This document shows, in pieces, positions 716 to 15,464 of a stretch of DNA of 16,001 nucleotides. Numbering within the stretch: the stretch's first letter is position 1; every line of letters starts with the position of its first letter. The stretch spans positions 181,570-197,570 of the IMG/VR virus record IMGVR_UViG_3300045988_160359; one strand, 5' to 3'. Below the pieces are notes generated by a model. That model was not told the origin of the DNA, ran no database searches, and worked only from the letters and a program-made list of their open reading frames with translations. The DNA comes from a virus. Both the position numbers and the translations under genes were made by a program.

Positions 716-2452
716 TTAAAAGAAGATTTTGCGAGGATTTTCGATTTCGTTCCCGTCTTCATCAATGAAATAACCCTTATCAAAATCGCAATATCCCGTT
801 TTGAGACTTACCCAACTGCGGTTAGGATTGTCTCTGCGATGCTCCATCCAGCCCTTGCCGTTCCAAGGAATAACATCCTGAACAGCATCCTCAGTCATCT
901 TCTCCAAATCCAGATAAGTATGGGAAATGTTCCACTTATCAACAAACTGCTCAACGGGGCCATAATCCTTGATTTCGCCAGAACGAATCTTCTTAGCACA
1001 ACACTCACACAGAGTATCAAAGTTGAGATGAGTGATATAGCCGTTGAACGCGATTTCAAATGTATTATCACTATGGATGAAATGGCGCTCAGGGTCAGGC
1101 AATTGGTCGCGCCAATCTTCACACTTTTCATTGTGGAGGTCAACCTCACGCTGACAAACGGGGCACTCAGCAGTCTCGTTATCATAGCAATCCTGACAAA
1201 TCAAACGGCCCTCAACCTCATACAATTCATCAGCATCGCAATAACGACCGCACTCTTCACATTCGCCATCACCATTACAGCTATGACAAATCAAATCGTT
1301 GGAACTCAGGAGACTTTCATCATAGCCGCTGGAAGTCTTACCGCAGCCCAGACACTCACTCACACCAGAATAATAAATATCAATCTTCTCCGGCAAAGCG
1401 GCATTCAAATACATCAGATGTTCAAAACGGAAATCACTATACATATGACCAGTAGAAAAATTCACAGGAATTTTCTTCTCGCCAACCTGAACAGTGTTCT
1501 CGCAATCGGCGCGATATCGGCAGGTAGTATCACGATACTGATAATGAAGGTTCTTCTCTGCCAGGCTTTTCAGCCAATTCAGGCACTCGCCCACCAGTTC
1601 ATCATTACAATAGGGATACTCGCGAATATTAACAATAACATCGCGGTCAACAACAAACAGGCAACGCCACTTCTTGCTGTTCCAATGACCATCAGGAATG
1701 TCCATCTCATAGTCAGGATTTCGCAGATACGCCACCACGACACAAGGAGAGTTCATCATCTCTACGGTACCCTGACGATAATCACCACAACCCTGCCAGC
1801 TCATACAACTGTCCCAGCCCTCGTTGTTATCACTCATAGTCATATAATCCAGAGGATGAATAGACAGGCACAATTCGCCGGTCAGCTTTTTCTGATTGAG
1901 GATACGAGAATGCTCCAAACGGAACTGCTCAAAGATTTCGTTCCACTCAGGGTTCTCAAAAGTGGCGAGAATCTTACCCAGAATCTTCACGGCCTTAGCA
2001 CCAGTATTCACACGAACGCCATTCACAGTGAACTCAGTGCGGCTCCAAGAGTTATTAGCCAGCATGTAGGAATCAATCAGCCGACAAATATTATCTGCCT
2101 GGTCATCATCCAGACCCAAAGCGGAATAAATATTCCGAGGCCAGAAATTTTCACGAATCAAAGTGTCCATCGCAGAGATACCGTTGCCATCTCCGCGATA
2201 ACGAGCATCGTTGATTTCATCGGCCAACTCTTCGACGCCCTTAGAGAAGTTAAAGGACTTCCTCAGAACAAGCTGCTCACCGAACATCGTATAGAGACGC
2301 TCCTTAGCCTCTGCCCACGGCGCCATCGTGTTCGGCATAGACTGAACATAACAACCAGTCGCATCATATTCATCATTCTTGCCGCCATATGCCTCAATGT
2401 AAGCACGAATCAGATCAATATCTTCCGTAGTCAGGGCGTCATACAGATTCAT
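716..2452 (-). CDS. Large hypothetical protein (578 aa) with a C-terminal cluster of CxxC zinc-ribbon-like motifs
   Basis: Real ATG at 2450-2452 (MNLYDALTT), immediately downstream of cassette B. The composition is protein-like (D/E/K/N/W-rich). The C-terminal third carries CLGC, CHSC, CEEC, CQDC, CPVC and CECC motifs. I did not recognise the family. The antisense strand is also open (707..2506 +). Confidence 0.85.
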   Translation of the reverse strand: MNLYDALTTEDIDLIRAYIEAYGGKNDEYDATGCYVQSMPNTMAPWAEAKERLYTMFGEQLVLRKSFNFSKGVEELADEINDARYRGDGNGISAMDTLIRENFWPRNIYSALGLDDDQADNICRLIDSYMLANNSWSRTEFTVNGVRVNTGAKAVKILGKILATFENPEWNEIFEQFRLEHSRILNQKKLTGELCLSIHPLDYMTMSDNNEGWDSCMSWQGCGDYRQGTVEMMNSPCVVVAYLRNPDYEMDIPDGHWNSKKWRCLFVVDRDVIVNIREYPYCNDELVGECLNWLKSLAEKNLHYQYRDTTCRYRADCENTVQVGEKKIPVNFSTGHMYSDFRFEHLMYLNAALPEKIDIYYSGVSECLGCGKTSSGYDESLLSSNDLICHSCNGDGECEECGRYCDADELYEVEGRLICQDCYDNETAECPVCQREVDLHNEKCEDWRDQLPDPERHFIHSDNTFEIAFNGYITHLNFDTLCECCAKKIRSGEIKDYGPVEQFVDKWNISHTYLDLEKMTEDAVQDVIPWNGKGWMEHRRDNPNRSWVSLKTGYCDFDKGYFIDEDGNEIENPRKIFF

Positions 2453-2486: not shown

Positions 2487-2515
2487 ATTATATTATAAAT
2501 TTATAAAAAAATCAA
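2487..2515 (-). promoter_or_regulatory. Promoter cassette copy B (TTGATT-N17-TATAAT plus leader), identical to copy H
   Basis: Minus strand: TTGATT tttttataaatttataa TATAAT ATATATATAAGATGAAGAAAGGAAATGATACAAA ATG. Plus 2447-2501 is identical to 15947-16001. The leader holds an 8-codon uORF (MKKGNDTK*) whose stop overlaps the gene ATG (ATGA). Confidence 0.8.
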
Positions 2516-2516
2516 A

Positions 2517-2549
2517 TAAGGGTCTTACCGCCGAAAGGTAAGACCCTTA
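2517..2549 (-). terminator. Rho-independent terminator (bidirectional) ending the upstream operon
   Basis: 13-bp stem taagggtcttacc / ggtaagaccctta with loop gccgaaa. T-runs lie on both sides (minus atttgattttttt, plus tttttgggggg). It abuts promoter B. Confidence 0.8.
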
Positions 2550-2585
2550 TTTTTGGGGGGATGAAATCAACAAACTGGGGATATA

Positions 2586-4076
2586 TTACTTAACCTGATT
2601 CATCAGCATCAGAGGAATGGCCATGTCCTTCATATCGCCATCATTCATCAGCATCAGCATCATAGGGTTAAACGCATTGGTAGAACCATTGGCCTGGCTC
2701 ATCAGCATCATAGGAATCAGCATATCCTTCATATCGGACTTGCCATCCATCAACATCAGCATCCACATATTGCCAAAGGGGTTCTCAGAAGTGGGAGTCT
2801 GGCCCATCAGGTTATCAAACAGAGACACAACCTTGGTAGCGAAATTGAAGCCAAACATATTCTTAGAAGGCATAATAGTCTTCTTCTCACCAGCCACGGG
2901 GTCAATGGCAACCAGGTCGCCGGCCTCGGTCTTGCTGATAACGAACATAGGCTTGCGTGCGTGGATAACGACATCGCCCACCGCAATGTCCTTGATAGCC
3001 ACAGGCATCTTGAACAGGAAATTGGAACCATCGAAATTGAACACATCGACGTCCATCAGGTCGCCAGCGCTCTTATCATAAGCGGTCCAGACGCCAGAAG
3101 CATTCTTAACAGCCATACCATACATAGACATACGGATGGAATCGTTGGTAATCTTACCGAAATCAAAATTGAAACCCTTCATTTTATTCTCCTTTTCTTC
3201 ATTATCCTTTTTTTCGTAATTCTTACAGTTTTTACACAGGTCATCACAGCAAATGCTTACCTGGTCAGCGCAAGGCTTGATAACATCAGCCCTAGTATTA
3301 AGTTTGGCAACAGAAACCAAATCGTCCGCACTAATAGGCTTAGTGCTACTTGTAGTTGCAAACCAATCAAGAGTGAGGCTATCCGGCTTTACGGCATTGG
3401 TAATGGGCTTAGTAGTGCTGGTAGGCACATTCCAATCAATAGTAAAACCATCAAGCGTCTCAGTATTGGTAGTCGCCTTAGTCGCAGTATTATCTGCGAT
3501 TGGACCGCCTGTAATGCCATTCCAATTCAAATTAGAGGGCTGAGTGGTCGCATAAGCAGGTGAATACTTATCAGCATCGGTGTAAATTTTTTCATATACA
3601 TCGTTGTAATAGTTATTGGTTTCCTTATACTGCTTAATGATATTCTTGTAATAATATTTATCGTTAATAGTCATTTCTCTCTTCCAATTCAATTCTGCTG
3701 TGGTAGGCTTCGTAGAAATGACATACTCAGTGGCTTCTTTTACCTCAATATTGCACATCAATACTTTGACAATAAATTGAGGGGTCAACTCATTGACAAG
3801 AAACTGACCGAAGGATTTATCATCAAAATAAAAGTTTGGAACATTTTCAACGAATACTTTTTTTGTATCAACGTCAAAATGAACAGATGTTGGAACGATT
3901 TTATTATCAACTCTGGAACAACGTTCCTTAATTGTCTTACGAATCTTACACCAAGCATCGTAATCAAACTTCTTATATTGCTTTTGCTTGACTGCCTTAT
4001 TAAACTTCTCAAACAGTTCATCGAACGCGGATTGAGAACATTTAACATACAGAGTGGGACTCTTAATTGTTGCCAT
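2586..4076 (-). CDS. Repeat-containing protein (496 aa) with a Thr/Ser-rich repeated linker and a Met-rich C-terminal tandem repeat
   Basis: ATG at 4074-4076 with RBS GGAGGAAGATA. The N-terminal part is very AT-rich (K/N/Y/I). The middle has repeats DWNVPTSTTKPI and DWFATTSSTKPI. The C-terminus carries two 23-aa repeats, NMWMLMLMDGKSDMKDMLIPMMLM and NPMMLMLMNDGDMKDMAIPLMLM. An FNF motif recurs (GFNFDFG, VFNFDGSNF, MFGFNFATK). Confidence 0.85.
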   Translation of the reverse strand: MATIKSPTLYVKCSQSAFDELFEKFNKAVKQKQYKKFDYDAWCKIRKTIKERCSRVDNKIVPTSVHFDVDTKKVFVENVPNFYFDDKSFGQFLVNELTPQFIVKVLMCNIEVKEATEYVISTKPTTAELNWKREMTINDKYYYKNIIKQYKETNNYYNDVYEKIYTDADKYSPAYATTQPSNLNWNGITGGPIADNTATKATTNTETLDGFTIDWNVPTSTTKPITNAVKPDSLTLDWFATTSSTKPISADDLVSVAKLNTRADVIKPCADQVSICCDDLCKNCKNYEKKDNEEKENKMKGFNFDFGKITNDSIRMSMYGMAVKNASGVWTAYDKSAGDLMDVDVFNFDGSNFLFKMPVAIKDIAVGDVVIHARKPMFVISKTEAGDLVAIDPVAGEKKTIMPSKNMFGFNFATKVVSLFDNLMGQTPTSENPFGNMWMLMLMDGKSDMKDMLIPMMLMSQANGSTNAFNPMMLMLMNDGDMKDMAIPLMLMNQVK

Positions 4077-4086
4077 TATCTTCCTC

Positions 4087-4260
4087 CTACCTACGTCGCA
4101 TTACTTCTGACTTAATATAGTCGAGGTCAGACTGCGACAGGTCATCATCGACGTCAATAGTATAATTGCCCGCGTCCGCATGAACCAGCGCGTCAATAAT
4201 ATCTTCTACCTCTTGGGTGTGCTTCGCATAGGGCCAAAACGGGTCATTCATATTAAACAT
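4087..4260 (-). CDS. Small acidic protein (57 aa, MFNMNDPFWPYAKHTQEVEDII...)
   Basis: Not in the ORF track because it is under 60 aa. ATG with an AGGTGATAAATT RBS. Its stop (TAG) lies within the RBS of the 2586..4076 gene. I read the frame codon by codon. Confidence 0.5.
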   Translation of the reverse strand: MFNMNDPFWPYAKHTQEVEDIIDALVHADAGNYTIDVDDDLSQSDLDYIKSEVMRRR

Positions 4261-8778: not shown

Positions 8779-8807
8779 AAGGGATGAGGTGCTAGACCTC
8801 ATCCCTT
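8779..8807 (-). terminator. Rho-independent terminator ending operon F
   Basis: 12-bp stem (8779-8790 / 8796-8807, aagggatgaggt / acctcatccctt) with loop gctag. Followed on the minus strand by a 7-nt U-run. The lipoprotein gene's stop codon (8799-8801) lies inside the stem. Confidence 0.8.
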
Positions 8808-9485
8808 CAAAATACTTGTATCAATAATTGAAAAATTAGCCCTATGAACGTACAAATCCATATCATCAATTGTGATATGCGTGGTCTTGGGCAAATTCTT
8901 ACAAAGTTCCCAACTAACATCAGACCCGCTATACATTCGGATAGGCTCGCCTGTCTGAGACTGAATCACGACAACACGAGGCTTCACCGTACGCCCGTGA
9001 GACTGTTCGTTAATACACCACCACTGAACAGTCCAATAGTCAGTCCAATTCATACTATACCAAGGTTCATTAACATCAATATAAGCATCATTGGTGCGGA
9101 CGTGAGTATTAATAACCTCAGGAATATTCATATCCAAGATTTCAAGGCGGTTATCGGCAAAAATAATAGTTGAACCGCACGAATCAATCTGCTTGCCGTC
9201 GATATATACAGACATTACAGAGGACATTGTCCAATTATATTCCCAATATCCTTCGGTGCTATAAGTATATTCCTTCACCTTGTTCGGCTCAATATTGAAA
9301 GTAGAGCCGGTTGCGCTCAGCCACAGGTCGCCGGCGTTATCGTAAAAATCAGCATTGAAAGTGATTTTTACTGCTTCATCTTCTGGCTTATCAGTACCGA
9401 GAGTCTCGCCCTTCGGCCCGCCTACACAGCCGGCGCACATCAGAATAATCAAAACCGCCATCAACGCACACAGAAACTTACGCAT
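8799..9485 (-). CDS. Putative lipoprotein (~228 aa) with signal peptide and lipobox (MRKFLCALMAVLIILMCAG|C)
   Basis: Track ORF 8799..9569 is 5'-extended. The ATG at 9483-9485 has a GGGAGGAG RBS and overlaps the upstream stop (TAATG). Basic N-terminus, hydrophobic core and an A-G-C lipobox. The mature part is Trp/Tyr/Asn-rich. Last gene of the operon. Confidence 0.75.
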   Translation of the reverse strand: MRKFLCALMAVLIILMCAGCVGGPKGETLGTDKPEDEAVKITFNADFYDNAGDLWLSATGSTFNIEPNKVKEYTYSTEGYWEYNWTMSSVMSVYIDGKQIDSCGSTIIFADNRLEILDMNIPEVINTHVRTNDAYIDVNEPWYSMNWTDYWTVQWWCINEQSHGRTVKPRVVVIQSQTGEPIRMYSGSDVSWELCKNLPKTTHITIDDMDLYVHRANFSIIDTSILKG

Positions 9486-9735
9486 TAGTCTCCTCCCACC
9501 ATTTGGTAAACGGCATCCAGTGAAGAACAATATCGCCCTCGCAAATATTGCCCCAGACTTCTCCATCATAATCCCAATAACTTACTGAATAACTCTCTTC
9601 GGTCATATCGGGGCGGCCCCGATAAACAGGAGCGGTATGAACGACATAGGCCTTAGCCTTATCTTTAAGAGACGGATAATCACTGGGCACGCTTTCAAGA
9701 GCATTTACCCAACCACTTTTAATTTCAACGCTCAT
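9478..9735 (-). CDS. DUF551-like small protein (85 aa; ...GDIVLHWMPFTKWWEETNA)
   Basis: ATG at 9733-9735 lies inside the last codons of the upstream gene. The C-terminal HWMP motif with a Trp-rich tail and the N-terminal W...L.S.P segment resemble Pfam DUF551, from memory. Confidence 0.45.
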   Translation of the reverse strand: MSVEIKSGWVNALESVPSDYPSLKDKAKAYVVHTAPVYRGRPDMTEESYSVSYWDYDGEVWGNICEGDIVLHWMPFTKWWEETNA

Positions 9736-10018
9736 AAATAATCAAATTTCCTTCCTTATCATATAAGGGCGAGAGTGCTCCATTTGTATAAATATATACG
9801 ACGCCAGTATTTCGGTCAGCGACCGCATATGCATCTCCACCTAGCACCTCGCCCTTATCAACTGGGATAAATAGTTCTCTATCTTCTGGAAATACGATAC
9901 CATTATCTACGGTATTAGGTTTAAATAACGAGAAAATGTTAATAAACATAACCGCCACTAACAGAATCGCCGCAGTCAGGCACGCTGTTCCAAGATATTT
10001 CTTAATCGAATCCAACAT
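9725..10018 (-). CDS. Membrane-anchored small protein, paralog 2 of 2 (~97 aa)
   Basis: N-terminal TM helix (CLTAAILLVAVMFINIF), then FPEDRELFIPVDKGEVLGGDAYAVADRNTGVVYIYTNGALSPLYDKEGNLIIY. This aligns clearly with 10002..10364. The ATG (second codon of the track ORF) lies within the 3' end of the upstream paralog. Confidence 0.8.
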   Translation of the reverse strand: MLDSIKKYLGTACLTAAILLVAVMFINIFSLFKPNTVDNGIVFPEDRELFIPVDKGEVLGGDAYAVADRNTGVVYIYTNGALSPLYDKEGNLIIYER

Positions 10019-10364
10019 CAACTATTTCCTCGCTGGGGTCATATATCATCAATGACCCATCCTCATTATATAGCGGACAAAAACTGCCATATCCACCGAC
10101 GAAAATATACATAACGCCAGTAATAGAATCGGCATACACCGTGGCGGCATGTCCGCATACCTCACCACTATCTATTTTTAGAAATCGCTCACTGTCAATA
10201 GGGAAAAAACTCCCGTCTTGTAGTTCTTCCATTTTGTTCGCTGGACCGTTTACATAACTTTGTTCCATCTTATGGACTGTCTTAACTACTACCCAAATCA
10301 TCATACCCAAGAGTAATATCAGACAGACCCAAATCATAAAACGGTCTAAATCTATCTTCTTCAT
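10002..10364 (-). CDS. Membrane-anchored small protein, paralog 1 of 2 (120 aa)
   Basis: ATG with a GGAGGT RBS. TM helix (FMIWVCLILLLGMMIWVVV), then FPIDSERFLKIDSGEVCGHAATVYADSITGVMYIFVGGYGSFCPLYNEDGSLMIYD. Confidence 0.8.
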   Translation of the reverse strand: MKKIDLDRFMIWVCLILLLGMMIWVVVKTVHKMEQSYVNGPANKMEELQDGSFFPIDSERFLKIDSGEVCGHAATVYADSITGVMYIFVGGYGSFCPLYNEDGSLMIYDPSEEIVDVGFD

Positions 10365-11797: not shown

Positions 11798-12094
11798 TTA
11801 GAGAGAATATTTCTTGATAAAATCTCTCAAACCGTAGTCATAAAGGTCGGCATCAAGCTGGTCATCGTTGATATCGTCGAACGCATTAGGGATTTCGTAG
11901 ATTGCGTAATCATACTCGCGTTCACCCTCCTCGTAGAGGTCGGTCAATGTAGTATAACTATCAATCAGTTCATCACACAAACATCGACCGATTTCATCGG
12001 CCTCACTAAAAGTATTAATGTGGTAGATGCCGCAATTGAAATATCCGTGGAGCCCGCCATAATAGGGCTCAGTTGCGTAAATTGCTACTCTCAC
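11798..12094 (-). CDS. Acidic protein (~98 aa), a possible ArdA-like DNA-mimic or anti-restriction candidate (low confidence)
   Basis: The best start is GTG at 12092-12094. GAGAGGAG lies 7 nt upstream and the GTG is in 4-nt GTGA overlap with the HNH gene's stop. The track's upstream ATG (12121) has no SD. The N-terminal VAIYATEPYYGGLHGYF loosely resembles the ArdA N-terminal IYVANLxxYNxGxLxGxW motif. The C-terminal half is strongly D/E/Y-rich. Confidence 0.6.
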   Translation of the reverse strand: MRVAIYATEPYYGGLHGYFNCGIYHINTFSEADEIGRCLCDELIDSYTTLTDLYEEGEREYDYAIYEIPNAFDDINDDQLDADLYDYGLRDFIKKYSL

Positions 12095-12804
12095 GCTTTT
12101 ACTCCTCTCAAATAATTCCATTTACGAGAATACATAGAACCATTCATACGAATGGTATTGCACAGCTTAAAGAAAAACTTCTCTTCGGTGGTGCTAACCT
12201 TAGAATTGTGCTGACAAAGCCAATCCATAGCCTCCATTGCCGTGCCTCTAAAACCATCATTGTTGATAAAAACAGTATCAAGAGTGATACCCTCTTGAAC
12301 AATGAAGGCGCGACAAGTAGTATCAGTAGTAGTAGCCAGCCATTTACCCAGAATATCGCCGCAGTTTTCCAGAATTTTCCCAGTATCCCGGTCGGTGGGT
12401 TCGGCGGTCTCAATAGGTTTAATAGGCTCAGTACCTGCATTGATTACAACAGGGACAGGGCTCGCCACAATATCATTGTTAGCGCGCATAAGATTCTCGG
12501 CCTGGCTAACCCATTCCAGATTATCAACGCGGTTATTGCGCTTATTGTGATCGAGATGGTCAACAGTGAATGCCTCGCGGTCTTCGATGGGACACCACGT
12601 ATACATTACCAAACGATGTGCCATACGGTTGCCGTGTTTGGTCTTTACAGACACATAGCCGTTCTGAGAATAAATTTTCTTAGGAATAGGACGCTTATGA
12701 ATGTCCTTAAAGTTGCCGAAGTTGGAAACCCAAACTCCATACTCCTTATTAAACTTCCACTTTTCAAACTCAATATGCAAGGTGGGAAAAATCATCATAA
12801 ACAT
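12091..12804 (-). CDS. HNH homing endonuclease (NUMOD4 N-terminal motif plus HNH_3-type core)
   Basis: EFEKWKFNKEYGVWVSNFGNFKD matches the N-terminal signature of phage HNH homing endonucleases. HRLVMYTWCPIEDREAFTVDHLDHNKRNNRVDNLEWVSQAENL is the HNH_3 catalytic motif (DH..-N-N.....NL.W......N). ATG is M2 of the track ORF, with an AAAGGAATTG RBS. It is driven by its own cassette copy G. Confidence 0.85.
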   Translation of the reverse strand: MFMMIFPTLHIEFEKWKFNKEYGVWVSNFGNFKDIHKRPIPKKIYSQNGYVSVKTKHGNRMAHRLVMYTWCPIEDREAFTVDHLDHNKRNNRVDNLEWVSQAENLMRANNDIVASPVPVVINAGTEPIKPIETAEPTDRDTGKILENCGDILGKWLATTTDTTCRAFIVQEGITLDTVFINNDGFRGTAMEAMDWLCQHNSKVSTTEEKFFFKLCNTIRMNGSMYSRKWNYLRGVKA

Positions 12805-12834
12805 CAATTCCTTTCTCTTTTACCTTATATATAT

Positions 12835-13202: not shown

Positions 13203-13595
13203 TTACGGCGCCCAATCTATCGGCTCAATCTCCATCCACCATCCGGCTCTAAACCAACTGGTGAGAGGATTTGACCGAGCCCTCTGACATCTATATACTC
13301 GATAATTAAAATCGTAAACTTTATTATAAATAGTATTGTAGGTAGCTTCATTAGTCTCTGCGTCATCACCATACCGTTCAATGTATCGAACGATATTTGC
13401 GCGTTCCGCATCTATCTGAAACTTATCATAGTCGCAAAGGCGTATAAAGAAACAGACAATGCCTAATGCGAGGAAAGCACAAAGAGCAACTCCTCCGATG
13501 ACACTAATACATTCATTTGTATCAACATCTCGAATCTTATGAAATAGAATGCTACAAATTACAAATACTACAAGAGGCAGCAATAAGAGAATCAT
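13203..13595 (-). CDS. Two-TM membrane protein, paralog 2 of 2 (~130 aa; ...NPLTSWFRAGWWMEIEPIDWAP)
   Basis: The ATG (M3 of the track ORF) is in 4-nt ATGA overlap with the upstream stop, 6 nt after AAGGAGG. Two hydrophobic helices precede a soluble C-terminal domain ending in the TSWFxxxW motif shared with 13592..13996. Confidence 0.8.
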   Translation of the reverse strand: MILLLLPLVVFVICSILFHKIRDVDTNECISVIGGVALCAFLALGIVCFFIRLCDYDKFQIDAERANIVRYIERYGDDAETNEATYNTIYNKVYDFNYRVYRCQRARSNPLTSWFRAGWWMEIEPIDWAP

Positions 13596-13996
13596 TTCCA
13601 TCCTCCTTCTGGAAATTCTACGGTAGTTAGGTCAGCCATCCAAGAGCGACCAAACCAAGAAGTCCATTCGTTGTTATAAGTATCGCGCATCGAGATAACC
13701 AATTCATTGTATTCATCTACATCGTGGACGAGTTCCGAGGTCAGACGAGCATCTTTGCGCCAATACTCATCATTAATACGCAGTTCAAGGAGCGCACGCT
13801 CCTTATCCATCGCGTCTTGGGTGCGGAGGTCAGAATCAAATGGCGTACAGGCACACATCGCCCCGCACACAATAAGACCAATCGCACAGCAAACCGCAAT
13901 TAAGAGAAAAGCCATAGAAATATCACGGTTTTCAAACTTATGGCACAGATAAGCGCTGATAATAAATACTATAATAAACAAAATAGTAGTTAGCAT
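13592..13996 (-). CDS. Two-TM membrane protein, paralog 1 of 2 (134 aa; ...NNEWTSWFGRSWMADLTTVEFPEGGWK)
   Basis: ATG at 13994-13996 overlaps the upstream stop (ATGCTAA). Helices VFIISAYLCHKFENRD and ISMAFLLIAVCCAIGLIVCGAM align with the paralog. Confidence 0.8.
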   Translation of the reverse strand: MLTTILFIIVFIISAYLCHKFENRDISMAFLLIAVCCAIGLIVCGAMCACTPFDSDLRTQDAMDKERALLELRINDEYWRKDARLTSELVHDVDEYNELVISMRDTYNNEWTSWFGRSWMADLTTVEFPEGGWK

Positions 13997-14539: not shown

Positions 14540-14724
14540 AGCGTTCCTCCAATCAATTGAACAATGAGGACAATCCACATAGTAATGAGAGCAACTGCGA
14601 CAAGAATACACATAAATGCTATCATAATATCGAATAATTTACTCTCACTCTTTTCGTGGAGAAATGTATTAAAAAAGAAAAAGCCGATACCTGTGAGAAC
14701 GAGAGCAAACAGTATTTTATTCAT
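14536..14724 (-). CDS. Two-TM membrane mini-protein (62 aa)
   Basis: ATG at 14722-14724 with a GGGGAGGAAG RBS, in ATGA overlap with the phosphoesterase stop. Helices ILFALVLTGIGFFFF and IMIAFMCILVAVALITMWIVLIV. Confidence 0.75.
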   Translation of the reverse strand: MNKILFALVLTGIGFFFFNTFLHEKSESKLFDIMIAFMCILVAVALITMWIVLIVQLIGGTL

Positions 14725-15464
14725 TGCGGCTTCCTCCCCAATCGGTAGCCACGCTTACGAGCGTTATACGTGGCTCTATCAATCGTATCGCGATGAATAG
14801 ATACGATGTTCGCGAGATGGCCTTCTTTCATAAATTTATTGAAATTTATAGGCTCGTAGCCAATCACATCAGCGCATACATTAAAGTGATATTTATCATT
14901 TTTATGAGAGCGGGAATGATCGTGCCCGTGAATATTCATACACCAATCACATCCCTTAATAGGCTCGTGAGAGAGCATCAGCTTCTCTCCAATGACTAAA
15001 ACACCAGTGTATACCTCGTCGAAAAGGCGGTTATCGGCGCTGACTTCCCAGCAAGGAACATTGTCGAGAAAATCATAACTATCGGTAATGGAGTAAGCGC
15101 AATCAGGATAGAGACGCTTCATCTCATCCAATGCTTCGTGCTTCTGGAATAGACCCTTATCAAATTTCTGCCTGAAAATCTGACGCTTATAGTTGGAAGC
15201 ACCAGAATCGTGGTTGCCCATTACGAGAATTTTATACTTGGCACGAAGCTGGCACACATAGGAAATATCGCCAACATCACCAAGGATAATCAGCGTATCA
15301 GCCCTGCCACACTTAGCATTAATGCGTTTCACTTGCTCTTCGGCGGAGGGACGGTCAGCATATACGTGAATGAGGTCGGGGTCATTAAAATGCGTATCTG
15401 AAATAATATGACACGTACCGGACGCGCCCCAATACTGAAACGGCGGGTAGAGACCTTCAATCAT
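14721..15464 (-). CDS. Calcineurin-like metallophosphoesterase (Ser/Thr-phosphatase-like), 247 aa
   Basis: MPP signature motifs occur in order: IISDTHF (DxH), LIILGDVGD (GDxxD), LVMGNHD (GNHD) and NIHGHDH (GHxH). ATG at 15462-15464 with an AAGGAGGAGG RBS. Confidence 0.85.
   Translation of the reverse strand: MIEGLYPPFQYWGASGTCHIISDTHFNDPDLIHVYADRPSAEEQVKRINAKCGRADTLIILGDVGDISYVCQLRAKYKILVMGNHDSGASNYKRQIFRQKFDKGLFQKHEALDEMKRLYPDCAYSITDSYDFLDNVPCWEVSADNRLFDEVYTGVLVIGEKLMLSHEPIKGCDWCMNIHGHDHSRSHKNDKYHFNVCADVIGYEPINFNKFMKEGHLANIVSIHRDTIDRATYNARKRGYRLGRKPQ

Follow-up and report, generated by a model that had tools for sequence, protein, structure and literature searches.

Here we describe a viral gene that very probably encodes two nested proteins, and the methionine (Met)-rich repeats with which both would end. 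The gene lies on the minus strand of a 16,001-nucleotide (nt) stretch of viral DNA, the whole of which was analysed and is called the window below (positions 181,570 to 197,570 of IMG/VR virus record IMGVR_UViG_3300045988_160359; all coordinates are those of the window). Its long product is a protein of 496 amino acids (aa), whose Met-rich end had been singled out in an earlier note made from the letters of the window alone. The parts of the gene, in the direction of translation, are as follows.

2586..4076 (-), long-form open reading frame (ORF), 496 aa plus stop codon
4083..4088 (-), Shine-Dalgarno (SD) sequence AGGAGG of the long form, 6 nt 5' of the long-form ATG, read directly (taggaggaagataATG)
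3747..4076 (-), N-terminal globular alpha/beta domain (N-domain), aa 1-110, from the AlphaFold2 model, alignment and hidden Markov model (HMM)
3183..3746 (-), disordered acidic Thr/Ser/Asn-rich linker, aa 111-298, including the DWNVPTSTTKPI and DWFATTSSTKPI repeats, from the predicted local distance difference test (pLDDT) scores
3189..3194 (-), internal SD sequence AAGGAG (codes Lys-Glu), 6 nt 5' of the internal ATG
3180..3182 (-), internal in-frame ATG (Met299), predicted start of a 198-aa short isoform
2802..3182 (-), predicted two-beta-barrel core of the C-terminal module, aa 299-425
2589..2801 (-), Met-rich tail, aa 426-496: invariant NPFGN, then two predicted helix-loop-helix hairpins
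2748..2768 (-), predicted hydrophobic helix A1, aa 437-443, MWMLMLM
2700..2723 (-), predicted hydrophobic helix B1, aa 452-459, MLIPMMLM
2646..2666 (-), predicted hydrophobic helix A2, aa 471-477, PMMLMLM
2598..2624 (-), predicted hydrophobic helix B2, aa 485-493, MAIPLMLMN

AlphaFold2 models were made of the module alone and of the full-length protein. They show a compact N-terminal alpha/beta domain (pLDDT 85-95 over residues ~8-107; isoelectric point 9.2), a linker that is disordered from about aa 108 to 303 (pLDDT <50 over aa 139-303), an all-beta core (aa 305-420, pLDDT >90) and a tail (aa 426-496) in which four short helices fall on the hydrophobic segments at pLDDT 43-57, with no confident intramolecular packing. 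The N-domain carries the conserved motifs F..F...V..K.Y.K..Y..W and D.SFG.FL, and its HMM matches 42 of 83 target ORFs, the remainder having a different N-terminus or none. No relative of this domain appeared in a PDB profile search or in a fold search; the fold search with the full-length model returned analogues of the core domain only, leaving the N-domain without a structural match. Among close relatives, the N-domain is 91.5% identical and the linker, the most variable region, 79% identical with 5% gaps. This organization bears out the description of the protein as a mosaic in the earlier note, as it combines a conserved C-terminal module with a variable disordered linker and an N-domain that other lineages lack or replace by a different one. 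Other features listed there are also found: both linker repeats, FNF motifs, which occupy nearly invariant core positions (N303-F304-D305-F306-G307, N347-F348 and F408-G409-F410-F412), and an AT-rich N-terminal part, in which codons 1-200 have a GC content of 31-39%, while the module reaches 44-55% (55% at codons 351-400) and the window averages 40.5%.

The C-terminal 198 aa form the conserved unit and are modelled as two beta-barrels, a core that is confidently predicted, followed by four hydrophobic helices that would form two hairpins. The modelled core may resemble the two-domain beta-barrel of eIF5A, EF-P and the fungal Woronin body protein HEX-1, at only 13-21% identity over ~70-80 residues. 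No sequence-level homology accompanies this likeness, the module profile finding no PDB sequence at E <=1 and no Pfam match, nothing points to ribosome binding or lattice formation, and the likeness may reflect a generic small-barrel architecture of the SH3/KOW/Tudor type. Profile searches of PDB sequences found nothing significant for either the module or the N-domain, and no Pfam, PHROG or NCBIfam match was obtained for the 496-aa protein, the module, the Bacillus phage homologues or 61 diverse family members that were scanned.

The module begins at a putative second start of translation, on which the earlier note had not remarked. Met299 is at least 90% conserved, and its ATG (3182-3180) is preceded by gaaAAGGAGaataaaATG, giving AAGGAG-N6-ATG at 3194-3180. 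We compared 71 non-redundant homologous junctions, taking the remaining internal in-frame ATGs of these loci as controls. Across these junctions an in-frame ATG stands 3-9 codons before a conserved FxFG motif, and AGGAG precedes it in 45 of 71 (39 at exactly 9-nt spacing), with a 4-mer SD sequence in 19 more. The same pentamer precedes 20 of 2118 control ATGs (0.9%; Fisher P 4e-59) and 32% of first-ATG gene starts.

A conserved Lys-Glu...Met peptide at the domain boundary, or a translational pause site, could leave a similar trace, in which case only the long form would be made. This reading draws on the end of the linker being generally rich in Lys, Glu and Asn and on 44 of the 45 AGGAG copies sharing a codon phase, which always gives x-Glu; the single phase counts against an internal start, as part of the AGGAG conservation could reflect a preference for Lys-Glu. 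Synonymous codon choice argues otherwise. Lys-Glu at codons -5/-4 is written AAGGAG in 33 of 42 cases and AAAGAA in 0 of 42, against 13% and 45%, respectively, for Lys-Glu pairs in neighbouring genes (P 1e-21). The SD sequence is moreover encoded through varied residues (KEN, KEK, KED, KES, KGN (= AAAGGAAAT) and EEE (= GAGGAG)), among which the Lys-Gly-Asn and Glu-Glu variants preserve the nucleotides and not the amino acids, and its position shifts together with that of the ATG. Also at odds with a peptide motif or pause site are the A-rich, unstructured context (58.5% A in the 30 nt upstream of the module ATG vs 30% ORF-wide; folding energy from -35 to +25 of -3.4 vs -10.2 kcal/mol in control segments) and the stand-alone module genes that begin at the same Met (L064-L066, 208 aa; L067; L081; gp2060 of Bacillus phage Edson, 268 aa). 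The SD-ATG persists where N-terminal parts vary or are missing. We regard it as quite improbable that this ATG is not a start.

Based on the conserved internal SD-ATG, the constraint on its codons and its A-rich, unstructured context, we conclude that the gene very probably has both a long and a short isoform. Since the long form has its own AGGAGG and a conserved N-domain, both forms are likely to be real, and we consider it very likely that the gene yields the predicted 496-aa and 198-aa products with the module in common. The direct prediction is a product of ~22 kDa with the N-terminus MKGFNFDFG. Bacillus phage Edson carries tandem paralogues, one long (L001:2364-3845, 493 aa, with a coiled-coil-like N-terminus and three Leu-rich hairpins) and one short (L001:3983-4789, 268 aa, with five Met hairpins), which as two separate genes correspond to the nested long and short forms predicted here.

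Nested products of this kind are best documented in the two-polypeptide endolysins of Firmicutes phages, in which translation from an internal start yields free C-terminal domains that form oligomers with the full-length chain (PMC9430671, PMC4777826, PMC7098653, PMC12203907). Lys170, LysIME-EF1, CTP1L/CD27L and phi2638A likewise have an in-frame internal SD and ATG at the boundary of the C-terminal domain, and give, as is predicted here, long and short products with a common C-terminus of small beta-barrels, a variable N-terminus and Firmicutes hosts. Unlike in these endolysins, the module described here is unrelated in sequence to known cell-wall-binding domains, its Met-hairpin tail has no counterpart among them, and the 496-aa gene lies outside any recognisable lysis cassette. 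We rejected endolysin identity because no catalytic domain occurs in 61 diverse members; neither these nor the window protein have a peptidoglycan-hydrolase or other Pfam domain. The strategy of one gene and two in-frame polypeptides, documented mainly for endolysins, would here extend to a new and widespread phage protein.

Lambda C/Nu3 and similar nested in-frame phage genes also have a C-terminal part that is translated separately from an internal start. The 496-aa gene resembles them in its putative internal start and differs in having no protease or scaffold homology and in lying outside a head-gene cluster. A scaffold or protease identity was rejected for want of homology and of a fitting context; one of 61 members gave a Phage_scaffold match (E 0.0014), which is below any threshold. 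The nested two-isoform layout is, then, a known phage gene organisation, and what is new here is an abundant family and an undescribed Met-hairpin repeat.

The tail contains two near-identical Met-rich units within the last 61 residues of the protein. Repeat 1 (NMWMLMLMDGKSDMKDMLIPMMLM, aa 436-459, 2700-2771) has 9 Met in 24 residues and repeat 2 (NPMMLMLMNDGDMKDMAIPLMLM, aa 470-492, 2601-2669) has 8 in 23, and the two are identical at 16 of 24 positions. Two C-terminal Met-rich repeats, as the earlier note had proposed, are accordingly present, coding and 23 or 24 aa long; their Met share, put there at over 40%, is slightly lower at 35-38% per repeat. Met accounts for 17 of the last 65 aa, compared with 3.3% as the family background (binomial P ~3e-11). 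The near-repeat noted in the underlying DNA is likewise real, as a 44-nt repeat at 84% identity and 99-nt spacing, and a 20-nt family with CATCAGCATCAG accompanies it.

Such a DNA-level repeat could in principle be low-complexity, non-coding sequence or be read in the wrong frame, and absence or frameshifting of the tail in close relatives had been named in the earlier note as the sign of this. Every one of the 120 closest relatives (82-95% identity) retains the tail in frame, with zero indels and 100% coverage. Synonymous changes outnumber non-synonymous ones in the tail (3:0, 6:3 and 6:3 in close relatives), the tail is conserved at the protein level in hundreds of divergent homologues down to ~30% identity, and a strong terminator-like hairpin lies just past the stop codon. 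We conclude that the tail is translated sequence under purifying selection, present in all relatives, and so is not a frame artefact; we attach next to no probability to that reading.

The wider family defines what is conserved in the tail. Statistics were drawn from 146 family representatives. After the invariant NPFGN, exactly four hydrophobic segments follow in 119 of 146 tails, 7-8 aa long in 535 of 558 segments and ordered as helix A, an acidic loop, helix B with its conserved L/M-P, and a Gly/Asn-rich spacer, all of which is then repeated once. Members of the gut clade have 2 hairpin repeats, phage G and Edson gp2050 have ~3 and Edson gp2060 has 5. Segments are composed of 45% Met, 25% Leu, 11% Pro, 6.5% Phe, 5.6% Ala and 2.4% Ile plus Val. 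The net charge of the tail is negative in 98% of members (median -4), and the Met-rich part contains 0.0% His, 0.3% Cys and 0.3% Arg. The columns that hold Met in the window protein are 50-85% Met family-wide, with L, F, A, W, Y and P as the only alternatives and His and Cys at 0, and the Met share ranges from 6 to 29% among tails of identical architecture. At five columns Met reaches ~80% and is strongly favoured over Leu. As a separate observation, the Met tail is extended by a Cys/His knuckle (H-x-C-x-C-G-G-x-C-G-x-H type) in 42 of 146 representatives (e.g., P0127, P0129, P0132 and P0139); the knuckle, which could be a small metal-binding site, is absent from the window protein.

The earlier note had likened the tail to Cu(I)/Ag(I)-binding Mets motifs, in which thioethers of MxM and MxxM clusters coordinate soft metal ions. 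The phage tail shares such clusters, and their high Met density, with CusF, PcoC/CopC, the Met-rich insert of CueO and the Ctr1 ectodomain, and the preference for Met over Leu at several columns, the DMKD-like loops, the extra CxCGGxCxxH end in some members and the occurrence of homologous units in extracellular eukaryotic proteins (see below), where Met ligation is chemically sensible, would all suit a metal site. The Mets motifs of CusF, PcoC/CopC, CueO and Ctr1 stand in a polar Gly/Ser/Asp/His context. Unlike these, the phage tail is hydrophobic, with Leu or Phe between the Mets, has neither His nor an export signal, and accepts L, F, A, W or Y, and never H or C, in its Met columns; Met falls to as little as 6% in members of the same architecture. 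Inspection showed no hydrophobic leader at the N-terminus (MATIKSPTLYVKCSQSAFDE) or at the internal start (MKGFNFDFGK), and the window protein matches no copper family of Pfam or NCBIfam even at E <=1. We consider copper or silver binding very unlikely. Because the hydrophobic positions accept Leu, Phe and Ala, the conserved property is a flexible, helix-forming, non-beta-branched hydrophobic surface and not a set of thioether ligands, and Met-rich tails should not be annotated as copper sites by composition alone.

Membrane-interacting amphipathic segments, the other comparison made in the earlier note, are a poor fit. The segments are uniformly hydrophobic with no basic face, are flanked by acidic residues instead of basic ones, and at 7-8 aa lack a hydrophobic span of at least ~18 residues; a transmembrane protein was rejected because they are too short. 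The four short helices could instead sit as monotopic hairpins in the inner leaflet of the host membrane, or bind a lipid or other hydrophobic ligand, and tether the module and its N-terminal cargo. The uniform hydrophobicity of segments that AlphaFold2 does not pack on the core, the 2-5 repeats, reminiscent of multivalent anchors, and the non-aqueous environment that hydrophobic hairpins would presumably require are in keeping with this proposal. Membrane segments normally use Ile and Val freely, whereas the two together make up 2.4% here; the scarcity of Arg and the acidity of the tails would be unfavourable at anionic bacterial membranes; the segments are only 7-8 residues in length; and the same hairpin unit occurs 4-9 times in secreted eukaryotic proteins. 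Membrane or lipid binding is, in our judgement, unlikely.

Those eukaryotic proteins were found by a search with the Edson stand-alone protein, which returned ~100 unannotated proteins in marine and JGI metatranscriptomes; among 96 relatives of the eukaryotic Met-repeat proteins, 0 are annotated. They contain 4-9 copies of M-D-P-M-M-M-M-x-L-M-G-D-D-S-x-x-M-K-D-L-L-P-L-M-M-M-x-G-G and no beta-barrel core, the units being interspersed with Cys-containing domains of ~90 aa behind signal-peptide-like N-termini (e.g., L104:4-1209, from JGI sample 3300037050, and P0278, P0279, P0283, P0287, P0288, P0290, P0293, P0294 and P0296). A 27-position HMM built from the gut-phage unit alone scores 20-25 bits per eukaryotic unit, compared with a maximum of 8.4 bits in 300 composition-matched shuffles, which indicates that the likeness is order-specific and not compositional. 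Among the encoding contigs, one is a polyadenylated mRNA that carries an AATAAA signal, and on this basis the Met-repeat proteins are taken as eukaryotic.

The presence of many hairpins in one soluble secreted chain favours hairpins that pack on each other. The 4-9 units of the secreted eukaryotic chains, which have no segment of transmembrane length, and the 2-5 hairpins of the phage proteins are both consistent with such packing. Based on these observations, the best overall explanation, which we put forward tentatively, is that the 198-aa region is an autonomous module whose Met hairpins serve as an association surface and which is made in long and short isoforms. Each hairpin would consist of two all-hydrophobic helices of 7-8 residues joined by an acidic loop, the second helix starting at the conserved L/M-P. 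AlphaFold2 does not pack the hairpins on the core. They would have to be buried somewhere, being unable to stay solvent-exposed in a monomer, and may pack on the hairpins of other chains to form a plastic, Met-lined core. Short and long isoforms would co-assemble through the common module, by analogy with two-polypeptide endolysins, most subunits being short forms and a minority displaying the basic N-domain on a flexible tether of ~190 aa.

Met-lined plastic hydrophobic surfaces are known from the "methionine bristles" of the SRP54/Ffh M domain and from the Met patches of calmodulin. There, too, flexible unbranched Met on helices buries variable hydrophobic partners; unlike in these proteins, the phage helices are two turns long and arranged in tandem hairpin repeats, and no relationship in sequence or fold was detected.

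Several points weigh against an association surface. Simple hydrophobic packing does not account for the preference for Met over Leu, the CxCGGxCxxH knuckle hints at the involvement of metal in a subset of 42 of 146 members, and the low pLDDT of the tail is equally compatible with binding to a foreign partner, a lipid or a membrane. Genomic context offers no functional clue, as none of the genes of the conserved block around the 496-aa gene has a known function that would allow guilt-by-association.

The preference for Met over Leu could also be accommodated by a redox-sensitive or condensate-forming "sticker" domain, in which weak, multivalent Met hairpins would be separated by Gly/Asn/Gln spacers and reversible Met oxidation would tune assembly, a mechanism that has been proposed for low-complexity domains rich in Met. 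The sticker-spacer layout, in which the 2-9 hairpin units of a chain alternate with linkers rich in G, N, Q and S, would agree with this. The fixed segment length, the fixed Pro and Asp positions and the invariant NPFGN anchor argue instead for a defined fold, and the hosts appear to be gut anaerobes (Clostridia bins of metagenome-assembled genomes, MAGs), which would meet little oxidant. We consider a sticker role improbable.

Returning to hairpins that associate with each other, a bolder and more doubtful extension of the same idea is that the Met hairpin is an undescribed autonomous repeat of ~30 aa ([ND]-P-M-M-h-h-h-M, acidic loop, D-h-L-P-h-M-h-M) that builds Met-cored assemblies. The repeat would serve in gut and Bacillus jumbo phages, where nested isoforms would form a hetero-oligomeric scaffold, and would have been recruited by, or horizontally shared with, secreted proteins of marine eukaryotes. 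Its occurrence in phage and eukaryotic secreted proteins raises the structural question of why Met, and not Leu, is used.

A search for the module in other phage proteins, as proposed in the earlier note, revealed a large family. An exhaustive HMMER scan with aa 299-496 gave 1438 clusters at 50% identity, with the module C-terminal in every listed match and preceded by 0-560 residues of other sequence; the 496-aa protein itself has >3,900 close relatives. Among cultured phages (50,697 records searched), only the C-terminal ~195 aa find matches, in a human-gut phage scaffold, Bacillus phages Edson and vB_BceM_WH1, and gp39 of Bacillus phage G, and the window as a whole had no megablast match among cultured phages. 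Nothing relevant was found in the literature on Met-rich phage repeats, phage G gp39 or phage WH1.

IMG/VR relatives lie mostly on contigs of 100-200 kb, and a near-identical protein is encoded on a 201-kb human-gut contig. A search of 185,579 species genomes found the module on only 18 MAG contigs, mostly in Clostridia/Bacillota bins, and in 0 isolates. The strong AGGAG ribosome-binding sites are consistent with Firmicutes hosts. From the contig sizes, the MAG bins and the AGGAG sites, we therefore consider the carriers to be large phages (~100-200 kb) that infect gut Clostridia, plus a few outlying Bacillus jumbo phages. The absence of matches in isolate genomes might point to a lytic lifestyle. 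This abundant family of such phages is nameless in every database. One 402-kb contig, IMGVR_UViG_3300032167_000002 (L025, L034), holds two different family copies, of 423 and 432 aa and ~200 kb apart, which may be paralogues in a megaphage or the result of a chimeric assembly of two related ~200-kb phages.

The 496-aa gene is found among many small unannotated genes. A conserved block surrounds it, consisting of a 57-aa acidic protein gene at -1 (4087-4260), a 578-aa Cys-rich protein gene at +1 (716-2452 (-)) and a 141-aa protein gene at +2 (198-623). The 578-aa protein has many CxxC pairs, a weak Prok-RING_4 match and a match to phrog_18912 (function unknown); its family is present in 58 of ~83 loci analysed and lies directly downstream (+1) in 36 instances. 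Two further features separate the 496-aa gene from this neighbour.

2514..2552 (-), intrinsic terminator-like hairpin, 16-bp stem and T run, directly 3' of the stop codon
2487-2515 (-), promoter-like site of the next gene, TTGATT-17-TATAAT, overlapping the terminator-like hairpin

The position of the terminator-like hairpin just after the 496-aa gene suggests that this gene is probably the last of its transcription unit. Farther away, annotation was possible only for a DUF5052 protein that has a lipoprotein-like leader (8799-9569 (-), Pfam E 4e-35), an HNH_3 homing-type endonuclease (12091-12807 (-)) and a calcineurin-like metallophosphoesterase (14721-15464 (-)). The window also holds two sets of overlapping tandem paralogues with an N-terminal hydrophobic helix, one of 98 and 120 aa ending in ...GVxYIY..G..SPLY..GxLxIY (9725-10364 (-)) and the other of 132 and 134 aa ending in ...TSWFxxxW (13203-13996 (-)).

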